Source of the DNA: Escherichia phage vB-Eco-KMB39
Sequence record: OR539219.1
Length of the DNA: 64,000 nucleotides
Strand: one strand, 5' to 3'
A model generated the notes under the pieces. It saw only the letters and a list, made by a program, of their open reading frames with translations, was not told the origin of the DNA and searched no databases. Every line of letters starts with the position of its first letter. Positions within the stretch are counted from its first letter, which is position 1. Below, one piece after another: positions 2,272 to 4,308 of the stretch. Both the position numbers and the translations under genes were made by a program.

Positions 2272-2745
2272 TTATTTGATTTGTTTAGCAGACCAAATGC
2301 GGTCTTTGATGATTTTTTGGATGTCTTCAACATACTCAAGAGAGTGAGCATGTGGGTTATCTTTGAAACTATAAGCACGAGCTAGCTTTTGGCCTTCGGT
2401 TTTGATTACTAAAAGCTCTTTAAGGATAGCTTCATATTTGGAGATAATTCCTTTAACAATATTTTTCTCTTGTGCGACTTTAGGATCTGCTTTAGGAGCA
2501 GGTTTACCCGAAGCCTTTGCAAAAGCAGCGCCAGTAGCAACTAAACTTTTCCAGGCCATACTAACCGCATTTCCTGTAAATCCTTCTGCTTTCATGTCGC
2601 GAGCAAATTGGAATCGCGATTCGTCAGAAGCATCTTTATAAGAATATTTACCCGCTGCAATGGCTGCTTTTGCGACAGCTTGAATTTCGGTGCTAGATGC
2701 TTCATTTAACACCGCTTCATTTAAAAATTGAGTATATGATTTCAT
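2272..2745 (-). CDS. phage internal protein (head-packaged) with capsid-targeting N-terminus
   Basis: ORF track 2272..2922 trimmed to ATG 2745 (AGGAAA RBS); N-terminus MKSYTQFLNE-AVLNE has the MK(T/S)(Y/F)xxF motif and L-x-E prohead-protease sites; basic Ala/Lys-rich body. Confidence 0.6.
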   Translation of the reverse strand: MKSYTQFLNEAVLNEASSTEIQAVAKAAIAAGKYSYKDASDESRFQFARDMKAEGFTGNAVSMAWKSLVATGAAFAKASGKPAPKADPKVAQEKNIVKGIISKYEAILKELLVIKTEGQKLARAYSFKDNPHAHSLEYVEDIQKIIKDRIWSAKQIK

Positions 2746-2783
2746 CTTATTTCCTGTTTTAATTCGTGGATTTAATATACTAA

Positions 2784-2791
2784 TATTTATA
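2784..2791 (-). promoter_or_regulatory. late promoter TATAAATA
   Basis: Exact TATAAATA on minus strand 39 nt upstream of the internal-protein ATG. Confidence 0.45.
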
Positions 2792-2793
2792 CT

Positions 2794-2822
2794 AAAAAGC
2801 CCCAACCTTTCGGTCGGGGCTA
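2794..2822 (-). terminator. intrinsic terminator, identical copy of the 2237..2265 hairpin
   Basis: Same 24-nt AGCCCCGACC-GAAA-GGTTGGGGCT plus T-run; lies at the 3' end of the tRNA/stable-RNA transcription unit. Confidence 0.55.
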
Positions 2823-2829
2823 AGCCTTG

Positions 2830-3137
2830 CGGCAACCTTGTCGGGGTTCCACCTGCTAAGGCAAGTGTTTGTACGAAACGCCGGGATTCGAACCCGGTTA
2901 TTAAGTAGTTGACGCTACTCAATATTTTTAAAAGGCCATATCTCGACCATATCCGAACGTTCCGTCAAAAACGCTACTCGGCTTATGGCAAAGATATTTC
3001 CTCGAATCGATAATTCGGTGCGCCGTTTCTGCTGTGATATAAGGGGACATTAACAAAACATAAAGATTTATTAATGCCAGTCCTTAAACAGGGAACATCA
3101 GTCCGACGACTTGCCGGTAGCGACCCGGCTTCTTGTC
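2830..3137 (-). ncRNA. candidate small stable RNA(s), tRNA-like 3' module
   Basis: No ORF; minus strand contains CCGGG-TTCGAAT-CCCGG (T-arm-like) with pairing CGGAACG/CGTTTCG but no CCA and no standard cloverleaf; position recalls T4 species 1/2 RNAs (memory only). Confidence 0.25.
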
Positions 3138-3215
3138 TGGTCGAGGCAGTAGGGATCGAACCTACGACCCAGGACTTAGAAGGTCCTTGCTCTTCCTTCT
3201 GAGCTATGCCTCGTA
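3138..3215 (-). tRNA. tRNA-Arg (anticodon TCT)
   Basis: Hand-folded cloverleaf: acceptor CGAGGCA/TGCCTCG, anticodon loop CTTCTAA, T-arm GTAGG-TTCGATC-CCTAC, encoded CCA. Confidence 0.75.
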
Positions 3216-3217
3216 TT

Positions 3218-3292
3218 TGGCGGACGTGATAGGATTCGAACCTATAACCAATCGCTTAACAGGCGATCGCTCTGCCATTGAGCTACACATCC
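3218..3292 (-). tRNA. tRNA-Asn (anticodon GTT)
   Basis: Acceptor GGATGTG/CACGTCC, anticodon stem ATCGC/GCGAT, loop CTGTTAA, T-arm TAGG-TTCGAAT-CCTA, encoded CCA. Confidence 0.7.
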
Positions 3293-3296
3293 AAAT

Positions 3297-3383
3297 TGGT
3301 GGGGAGTGGTGGAGTCGAACCACCCGAGTCGCAATGACAATGAATTTACAGTCCACACCGCTACCCCTACGGGATAACTCCCC
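3297..3383 (-). tRNA. tRNA-Tyr (anticodon GTA), type II with long variable arm
   Basis: 87 nt; acceptor GGGGAGT/ACTCCCC, anticodon loop CTGTAAA, variable arm GTC-ATTGC-GAC, T-arm GGTGG-TTCGACT-CCACC, CCA; anticodon stem needs two G-U pairs. Confidence 0.55.
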
Positions 3384-3642: not shown

Positions 3643-3658
3643 TATTTATATATTTATA
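3643..3658 (-). promoter_or_regulatory. two tandem TATAAATA late-promoter motifs just upstream of tRNA-Ser
   Basis: Plus-strand tatttata at 3643-3650 and 3651-3658 (TATAAATA on minus), between segB stop and tRNA-Ser 5' end; very close to the tRNA 5' end, so function uncertain. Confidence 0.3.
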
Positions 3659-4262
3659 TATTGTTAATTTGATTTAGAATTCTTTTTGCTTGAGTATGAC
3701 TTACGCCAATATGCTTAGCATATTTAGATAATTCGCCGCGTTTAGAAAAATCATATAATTTAGAAATTTCTATTCTTCTTTTTCTTTCATCCGCAGAAAC
3801 TTTTGCTTCGTTTGCTTTTGCTATTTTACGTTTAGCTTCTTGAGAATGAGTTTTACCAGCAAAGCCATTCTTCATTAATCCATTTGAAGACCATCCTTTT
3901 AATTTTCCGTTAGAATGTGCCTTTTTAACACCCAATGAAATTAATTCGCGTTGCTGATCTGTCATAGGATAATTATTTATATGATCCCATCCACCTTCAC
4001 CTCCAAGTTTTAAATTATACACATCTGGTCTATTTAAAAACTCTTCTGTGACAATATTTTTCTCGGCTTCAAGCATAGATTCTTTATCATCAAAATACTC
4101 TAATATTTCTTTAGAAAAATTTTCTATACCATATTTATCTTGGGCTCTTTTTAATAATTTACCAGAACCCATATATCCATCATCTAAATTTTCGGTAGAA
4201 TGCACACCAATATAAATTTTATTATTAATTTTATTTGTTATTTTATAAAGATAAAAATGCAT
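3654..4262 (-). CDS. segB: GIY-YIG homing endonuclease embedded in the tRNA cluster
   Basis: GIY-YIG motifs FYLYKITNKINNKIYIG and YMGSG; start moved from 4304 to ATG 4262 to avoid overlapping tRNA-Gly; segB-like position by memory of T4. Confidence 0.75.
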   Translation of the reverse strand: MHFYLYKITNKINNKIYIGVHSTENLDDGYMGSGKLLKRAQDKYGIENFSKEILEYFDDKESMLEAEKNIVTEEFLNRPDVYNLKLGGEGGWDHINNYPMTDQQRELISLGVKKAHSNGKLKGWSSNGLMKNGFAGKTHSQEAKRKIAKANEAKVSADERKRRIEISKLYDFSKRGELSKYAKHIGVSHTQAKRILNQINNI

Positions 4263-4308
4263 ATCAGTCCCTAATAAAGAACTGAGCGTCTCACGACGAG
4301 TCATAAAT

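Follow-up and report, generated by a model that had tools for sequence, protein, structure and literature searches.

The 64-kb window (the whole stretch of DNA analyzed here) is T4-like Tequatrovirus DNA. A megablast search with positions 2700-3300 as query matched 737 phage records, nearly all of them T4-like phages of Escherichia, Shigella, and Yersinia, with Tequatrovirus NBG2 as the top match (99.8%). The tRNA genes in the region all lie on the minus strand, to which the feature coordinates below also refer, and ARAGORN and Rfam tRNA matches give their order as Gln-Leu-Gly and, after a gap, Ser-Thr-Met-Tyr-Asn-Arg. The final tRNA of the operon is tRNA-Arg (3138..3213; anticodon TCT, CCA encoded), which matches Rfam RF00005 at 65.8 bits. 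The stretch flagged in an earlier note is read on the minus strand and is therefore downstream of this tRNA. It begins with an orthologue of T4 rnaD (species 2 RNA; 120 nt, 3017..3136), which adjoins tRNA-Arg on its downstream side, starts 2 nt past the CCA, and has a 3′ terminus reading ...ACGGCGCACC. An A/U-rich spacer, GAAUUA (3011..3016), placed by alignment to T4 and presumed to be an endonucleolytic processing site, separates rnaD from an orthologue of T4 rnaC (species 1 RNA; 139 nt, 2872..3010). Both RNAs were delimited by alignment to the corresponding T4 misc_RNA features.

Beyond rnaC lies a conserved 3′ trailer (2822..2871) with a predicted hairpin, CACUUGC-CUUA-GCAGGUG (2867-2850), which is presumably lost in 3′ maturation. 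It is followed by the intrinsic terminator of the tRNA/rnaD/rnaC transcription unit (2793..2821), a hairpin (2821-2798) with a 10-bp stem (7 G-C pairs) and a 4-nt loop, and then a T run. Trailer and terminator together are identical to T4 at 75 of 79 positions and fold with an MFE z-score of -4.3, and the record of phage NBG2 annotates a terminator at the same element. The trailer still adjoins the terminator in phages without rnaC (CLB_P2, IME281, and EAWsc9). At the other end of the unit, just upstream of tRNA-Ser, a motif scan found two tandem TATAAATA motifs (3643..3658), the T4 late-promoter consensus. As consensus matches only, they mark a possible late promoter of the Ser-to-rnaC unit, and the pair fits the late class of T4 RNAC and RNAD (PMC9697503).

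The earlier note had described an ORF-free, structured region between tRNA-Arg and a terminator, and the position (between tRNA-Arg at 3213-3138 and the intrinsic terminator hairpin at 2821-2798) and the want of coding potential were both borne out. From tRNA-Arg to the terminator, the mechanical ORF list holds frames of only 22-42 aa and one longer entry, in which the next gene, with its real start at the ATG at 2745, is extended upstream to a TTG. For practical purposes, then, the region contains no ORF. That the short frames (2838-3056, both strands) are real small protein-coding genes might be argued from the "hypothetical protein" annotated under the match in many GenBank records. This is hardly credible: the longest frame (minus strand, 2928-3056) starts at a TTG within rnaD and spans the spacer, this start is absent from Karamvirus phages since rnaC there directly follows a tRNA, variation across the region is of the paired-RNA type and not the codon type, and the T4 record has misc_RNA features here.

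Identity of the two RNAs

In the T4 record (NC_000866), tRNA-Arg is followed directly by two misc_RNA genes, rnaD ("species 2 RNA," 119 nt) and rnaC ("species 1 RNA," 139 nt), and the minus strand of the window from 3136 to 2872 aligns with them base for base. The rnaC sequence is identical to T4 (70908-71046) at 137 of 139 positions (98.6%), and rnaD (T4 71053-71171) in 102 of 121 aligned columns (84%). The conserved rnaD blocks AGAARCCGGGUCGCUACCGG, AAGUCGUCGGACUGA, and CACAGCWGAAACGGCGCAC are all found in the window copy, and the records of RB27, RB33, RB68, and T2L carry rnaC/rnaD annotation under the matching stretch. The alignment with T4, a check that the earlier note had proposed, settles the identity of the stretch, which, as judged from sequence, is made up of orthologues of rnaD and rnaC followed by the conserved trailer and the operon terminator. 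We are highly confident of this identity and of the architecture of both RNAs set out below. The stretch is thus a rediscovery of already known RNAs, recognized as small stable RNAs since the 1970s. T4 RNAC and RNAD were validated by Northern blot as late RNAs in a 2022 omics study, in which rnaC appeared as a discrete stable RNA of ~140 nt (PMC9697503).

The operon shares with T4 the location of the two RNAs after tRNA-Arg, the order rnaD-rnaC, the trailer, and the terminator. rnaC has the same length in both phages (139 nt), whereas rnaD has 120 nt here and 119 nt in T4. The upstream tRNA set also differs: Asn, Tyr, and Met are present here, Ile is missing, and no Pro was called. Within the two-RNA stretch, the rnaD ...CACC is followed by G here but by A in T4, and the apical hairpin of rnaD has diverged from that of T4.

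Rfam returned no family for rnaC or rnaD, either at the gathering threshold or at E ≤ 10; the best related match in the stretch was tRNA-Sec, whose 17 bits (E = 1.3) fall short of the gathering score of 47. ARAGORN called no tRNA and no tmRNA in the rnaD/rnaC stretch. The earlier note had proposed an Rfam scan and would have counted covariance models finding nothing against the RNAs; the scan did find nothing, yet this outcome would mislead because Rfam has no model for either RNA. A search of 5,426 complete E. coli genomes with rnaD plus rnaC gave no match and thus no hint that the RNAs came from the host.

Structure and distribution of rnaC

The rnaC data set comprised 30 distinct sequences from Tequatro-, Mosig-, Gapriver-, Karam-, Winkler-, and Marfavirus-type phages and from metagenomic contigs. 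In a single-sequence fold the window copy has an MFE of -50.6 kcal/mol (z = -5.2), and it scores 163 bits against the covariance model R1, whose alignment includes the window sequence. The ends of the RNA pair with each other in a terminal acceptor stem: the 5′ strand CGAUUCG (3003..3009) pairs with the 3′ strand CGUUUCG (2874..2880), which is contiguous with the T stem and is followed by UA (2873-2872) and then CAAA. This closure is also predicted by the single-sequence MFE fold. Five pairs of this stem are canonical throughout the 30 sequences, and the two U.U mismatches at its center never vary. At the third pair, 19 sequences have G-C and 11 have A-U; it is broken in none and G.U in none, and this covariation is probably a single evolutionary event.

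Adjoining the acceptor stem is the T arm, CCGGG-UUCGAAU-CCCGG (2881..2897), which occurs once in the window and is paired in 100% of cells across the 30 sequences, with a third pair that is U-A in 16, G-C in 13, and A-U in 1. Its presence had been pointed out in the earlier note, and the observation is real and non-random: the pattern CCNGGTTCGAATCCNGGCG has one occurrence in the window, compared with none in 100 shuffles. In some Karamvirus-like (L003, L023) and Winklervirus sequences the UUCGAAU loop is changed to UGCAUGC or UGCAUYC, and a tRNA-type T-loop is therefore not universally required. A pairing of the 5′ end with the T-loop (via the palindromic UUCGAA) was rejected, given that the loop changes in these sequences while the 5′ end stays. 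Pairing via a repeated GAGUAGCG motif was also rejected; its second copy changes in Karamvirus and its first does not.

Just before the T arm, at the position of an anticodon arm, is a 10-bp arm, UAUUGAGUAG-CGUCAA-CUACUUAAUA (2899..2924; loop 2914-2909), with compensatory changes in 8 of its 10 pairs and 94% of cells paired. The position of the D arm is taken by an expanded domain of 70 nt (2933..3002) with helices P2 to P5. P2, AGG/CCU, joins 3002-3000 with 2935-2933 and is invariant; P3, AUAUCU/AGAUAU, covaries (e.g., UGCCU/AGGCA in L004); P4 is GCC/GGU and P5 is CCGA/UCGG. The VPA32, KLB31, and Marfavirus types have another arrangement in place of P3-P5. At the apex of the domain is a local hairpin, CGUUU-UUGACG-GAACG (2958..2973), paired in 100% of cells in the 30 sequences and with both-side changes at all five pairs. 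Its loop, UUGACG (2963..2968), is complementary to the loop CGUCAA of the 10-bp arm, forming a kissing interaction whose six pairs are all canonical in every one of the 30 sequences. Marfavirus-type phages have UUGGCG with CGCCAA, a compensatory double change that makes the pair concerned A-U in 25 sequences and G-C in 5, and that is probably one evolutionary event; the covariation of the 10-bp arm, the local hairpin, and P3 involves several events. The distal loops of the D-position domain and of the 10-bp arm being paired with each other, no free anticodon-like loop is left.

The full model has 90.9% of its cells paired; the mean of the shuffles is 82.4%, and slid registers reach 37-47%. Both-side changes occur at 22 pairs, a number reached by 0 of 500 shuffles, although these statistics overstate the significance because sequences from related phages share ancestry. 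On this model rnaC resembles an oversized tRNA, a cloverleaf-like four-way junction, supported by covariation, of acceptor stem, 70-nt D-position domain, 10-bp anticodon-position arm, and T arm. By analogy with tRNA, the acceptor stem and T arm would be expected to stack coaxially.

This model revises the acceptor pairing that the earlier note had proposed between CGGAACG (2964-2958) and CGTTTCG. The two strands are indeed complementary in the window, but the pairing was rejected on comparison of the 30 homologues: 87.6% of cells are paired against a shuffled mean of 89.9%, which is below all 500 shuffles, compensatory changes are lacking, and half of the sequences (15 of 30) break the third pair. 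CGGAACG belongs instead to the local hairpin described above. The tRNA-like 3′ module that the note had recognized is real, but its partner is the RNA's own 5′ end, with which it makes up a complete acceptor/T minihelix. Other parts of the description hold: the stem runs into UACAAA with no CCA (...CGUUUCG-UACAAA), ARAGORN and the Rfam tRNA model are silent, canonical D and anticodon arms are absent, and the several other hairpins noticed are reflected in the MFE z-scores of rnaC, rnaD (-2.7), and the trailer with terminator.

Hundreds of phages of several genera carry rnaC, with 84-100% conservation along all 139 nt. In Karam- and Winklervirus phages it lies between tRNAs of the array, starting 3-6 nt after the preceding CCA, with the next tRNA starting about 6-11 nt past its stem. 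Some annotation pipelines label it variously as tRNA-Met (95 nt), tRNA-OTHER, tRNA-Lys, or tRNA-Phe. The acceptor stem is followed by U-ACAAA in T4- and Karam-type phages and by U-CCA-A in the Marfavirus type only. Dhakavirus phages have lost rnaC precisely, so that rnaD is joined to the trailer, and Gaprivervirus phage EAWsc9 has an ORF where rnaC would be; given these absences, rnaC is dispensable in nature. A search of IMG/VR with the pattern TTCGAGGA...CCNGGCGTTNCG gave 79 loci, and a near-identical pattern ending in ...NCGT occurred in at least 120 metagenome stretches, 80 of which were screened as loci. From these IMG/VR and metagenome loci R1 accepted just 5 new members, each of them from a T4-like phage, and the rest were chance matches.

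Of the two origins that the earlier note had offered for the stretch, small stable RNAs or a decayed tRNA, the alignment with T4 upholds the first. The second would make the T arm and acceptor strand a drifting, functionless remnant of a tRNA pseudogene. A perfect T arm beside an acceptor-like strand, the lack of a CCA, D arm, or anticodon arm, the weak tRNA-Sec match (17 bits), and the location within a tRNA cluster would all suit such a remnant. The conservation of rnaC over its full length in so many phages would not, nor would compensatory changes in helices that have no tRNA counterpart, and T4 produces rnaC as a discrete stable RNA (PMC9697503). A drifting pseudogene, moreover, would not hold a six-pair loop-loop complementarity through a double change. 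We consider decay from a tRNA to be exceedingly improbable.

Structure and distribution of rnaD

The window copy of rnaD has an MFE of -36.4 kcal/mol (z = -2.7), and a consensus fold was built from 14 sequences. It begins with hairpin 1, GCCGG-GUCGCUA-CCGGC (3113..3129), present in 14 of 14 sequences in the consensus fold. The consensus of this 5′ hairpin is RCCGG-GUCGCUA-CCGGY, in which the two outer pairs covary, and its stem reads AUAGG/CCUAU in the homologue of Pectobacterium phage PM2 and GUCGG/CCGAU in that of the Vequintavirinae phage A7_1. The remainder of the RNA is closed by a long-range helix found in both the MFE and the consensus folds, in which the 5′ strand GUCGUCG (3104..3110) pairs with CGGCG (3025-3021) and AC (3019-3018) of the 3′ strand CGGCGCAC (3018..3025). 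The GUCGUCG:CGGCG-AC helix is invariant among close relatives, and the same long-range closure appears in separate folds of the A7_1, Karamvirus, Jiaodavirus, and PM2 homologues. An inner helix has one covarying pair, U-A in 8 sequences and A-U in 5. The variable apical hairpin (3037..3089) is swapped wholesale in sequence between lineages while its pairing is kept, and its base covaries (alignment columns 50-57/101-109). Independent folds of five divergent homologues give the same architecture. rnaD is thus a separate, rod-like RNA, supported by covariation, with a 5′ hairpin and a long irregular hairpin closed by the long-range helix.

The terminal CC of rnaD is CA ("ACA") in three sequences (L014, L019, and L020), and the terminal "ACC" is largely base-paired; it is therefore not an acceptor end or a free NCCA tail. 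A hammerhead-like reading of CUGAUG...GAAAC in rnaD was rejected, with U and not A at core position 9, an unmatched stem II layout, and no Rfam match.

RNAs with the architecture of rnaD were found in Karamvirus, in Jiaodavirus, in Pectobacterium phage PM2, and in A7_1, where the RNA comes directly after a tRNA. The spread of rnaD is wider than that of rnaC and includes the Vequintavirinae. Each of the two RNAs occurs without the other, and they are thus independent modules.

Resemblance to known RNAs, biogenesis, and function

rnaC shares with tRNA (RF00005) a 7-bp terminal acceptor stem, a contiguous 5-bp T stem with no unpaired base in between, as in tRNA, and a 7-nt UUCGAAU loop. The four-way junction topology, the location in a tRNA operon, and, in Karam- and Winklervirus phages, the array spacing are also tRNA-like. 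Unlike tRNA, rnaC is 139 nt long, lacks a D arm and a CCA, has two U.U mismatches in its acceptor stem, and carries a 10-bp arm with a 6-nt, loop-paired loop where tRNA has a 5-bp anticodon stem with a 7-nt loop. It was not detected as a tRNA either by ARAGORN or, at E ≤ 10, by RF00005. No 3′ NCCA is encoded in the rnaC of this window, and the annotated mature end in T4 is UA. The tRNA-like domain of tmRNA (SsrA) offers a second comparison, as there too the termini form an acceptor stem beside a T arm and a large insertion replaces the anticodon region. rnaC differs from tmRNA in having no tag ORF, no G3.U70 pair, and, in T4-type phages, no CCA; the best match of the Rfam tmRNA_permuted model in the stretch has 10 bits (E = 8.4). 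YrlA, a bacterial Y RNA-like RNA with a tRNA-mimicking module that binds Rsr, resembles rnaC in being non-coding, in containing a T-arm-bearing tRNA-like module, and in presumably acting by protein binding. The termini of YrlA form a Ro-binding helix, however, and not an acceptor stem, and YrlA gave no Rfam match in the stretch at E ≤ 10.

The likeness to tmRNA, together with the U-CCA encoded after the stem in Marfavirus-type homologues, raises the question of whether rnaC is a chargeable tmRNA- or tRNA-like RNA acting in translation or amino-acid transfer. This is very unlikely. The stem is followed by UACAAA both here and in T4, whose annotated mature end is UA, there is neither an ARAGORN tmRNA call nor a tag reading frame, the third acceptor pair is A-U or G-C and never G.U in the 30 sequences, and the loop at the anticodon position is sequestered by the kissing interaction. 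Mature rnaC would accordingly not be expected to be chargeable, because it ends in UA and not CCA and has this loop tied up.

As for biogenesis, rnaD and rnaC would be the last genes transcribed in the tRNA operon, whose order is Ser-Thr-Met-Tyr-Asn-Arg-rnaD-rnaC. From what is known of tRNA processing, the host enzymes that mature the neighboring tRNAs would also cut both RNAs from the polycistronic precursor, with the A/U-rich spacer as the likely endonuclease site and the trailer hairpin being trimmed away. The acceptor/T minihelix of rnaC could serve as a handle for tRNA enzymes, for which RNase P or RNase E, 3′ exonucleases, and TruB/TrmA-type enzymes are candidates, and rnaC would then occupy a tRNA-binding protein rather than decode. 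We suggest, with low confidence, that uncharged rnaC may bind a tRNA-recognizing protein through this minihelix.

The main rival is that both RNAs are processing by-products, structured leftovers of tRNA-operon maturation and termination with no function in trans. T4 tRNA-region deletions are viable on laboratory strains, which can be counted for this reading, as can the absence of rnaC from Dhakavirus phages and EAWsc9. The literature also names no function for either RNA (PMC3014915). Against this, conservation of sequence and structure exceeds what a spacer would need, and rnaD is kept in differing genomic contexts, including that of a Vequintavirinae phage. A 2025 experimental-evolution study in which a T4-like phage was adapted to the host ECOR34 also tells against it, as every line acquired a single convergent SNP, and this SNP lies in rnaD (PMC12685909). 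We regard the by-product explanation as improbable, if a serious one. More speculatively, and at long odds in our estimation, rnaC might be a tRNA-shaped late decoy that titrates or redirects a tRNA-recognizing factor, and rnaD an independent host-interaction RNA that affects growth on particular hosts, as the convergent SNP suggests (PMC12685909). The target of such a decoy may be a host tRNA-targeting defense nuclease, a tRNA-modification or CCA-adding enzyme, or RNase P.

The practical value of these findings lies in annotation. The stretch is blank in most GenBank records of T4-like phages, others have unfounded "hypothetical protein" entries or odd tRNA annotations there, and Rfam is without a model for either RNA. 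As to biology, the question of what rnaC and rnaD do is about fifty years old, and the comparative model is testable and offers targets for mutagenesis: in rnaC, the terminal acceptor stem, the CGGAACG-containing local hairpin, and the covarying loop-loop pair, and in rnaD, the architecture that it has in common with the RNA of an unrelated phage subfamily.

Putative mobile genes around the tRNA/rnaD/rnaC unit

Downstream of rnaC, the terminator hairpin AGCCCCGACCGAAAGGTTGGGGCT occurs in two copies (2821-2798 and 2265-2242, minus strand), which flank a 157-aa ORF of family phrog_2280 on the same strand (2745-2272). A TATAAATA motif lies upstream of this ORF (2791-2784, minus strand). The same arrangement is found in the closely matching phage NBG2, and the T4 record with which the region was compared has no gene at the corresponding position. 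The stretch from 2242 to 2821 looks like an inserted gene cassette that carries a duplicated terminator.

A second gene, on the minus strand at 3654-4304 between tRNA-Gly and tRNA-Ser, encodes a Seg-like homing endonuclease of 216 aa with GIY-YIG and NUMOD3 domains (phrog_314, E = 1.5e-55). The site differs from that of T4 segB, which occupies the tRNA-Ile/tRNA-Arg interval. In T4 and NBG2 the Gly/Ser interval contains tRNA-Pro, whereas ARAGORN called no tRNA-Pro anywhere in the window.

Loss and variation of rnaC

Some related phages lack rnaC. In Dhakavirus phages (loci L006 and L219) the gene has been lost precisely, so that rnaD directly abuts the trailer, and in the Gaprivervirus EAWsc9 (L218) an ORF stands in place of rnaC; all three loci nevertheless retain the hairpin of the trailer and the terminator. 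The rnaC copies of Marfavirus-type Klebsiella phages (L026 340-400, L027, L031, L033, and L037) encode U-CCA 3′ of the acceptor stem. These phages also have an extra conserved element of ~60 nt, AAGGGGUGGAAAUAUCUUCAGGAC...CCCACUCCAAGG, between rnaC and the tRNA that precedes it. In Citrobacter phage Moon, the rnaC covariance model gives a second, weak hit (L016 1076-1188; 21.7 bits, E = 0.007), which was seen by eye to span portions of two neighboring tRNAs and is therefore probably not a paralogue.

Annotation and distribution

Among the public records under the match, most T4-like phages have rnaC and rnaD unannotated. In others, they are overlapped by CDSs labeled "hypothetical protein" or by unusual tRNA calls (tRNA-OTHER, tRNA-Lys, tRNA-Phe, and, in phage SonariX, a tRNA-Met of 95 nt); the tRNA-like module has probably given rise to these as annotation artefacts.

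An rnaD homologue is also present outside this group, directly 3′ of a tRNA in Escherichia phage A7_1 of the Vequintavirinae (L217 598-702). Its conserved blocks are almost the same as those of T4, and its hairpin-1 stem is compensated (GUCGG/CCGAU). Such near-identity in a phage of another subfamily, together with the compensated stem, points to either horizontal spread of rnaD or strong selection on it.
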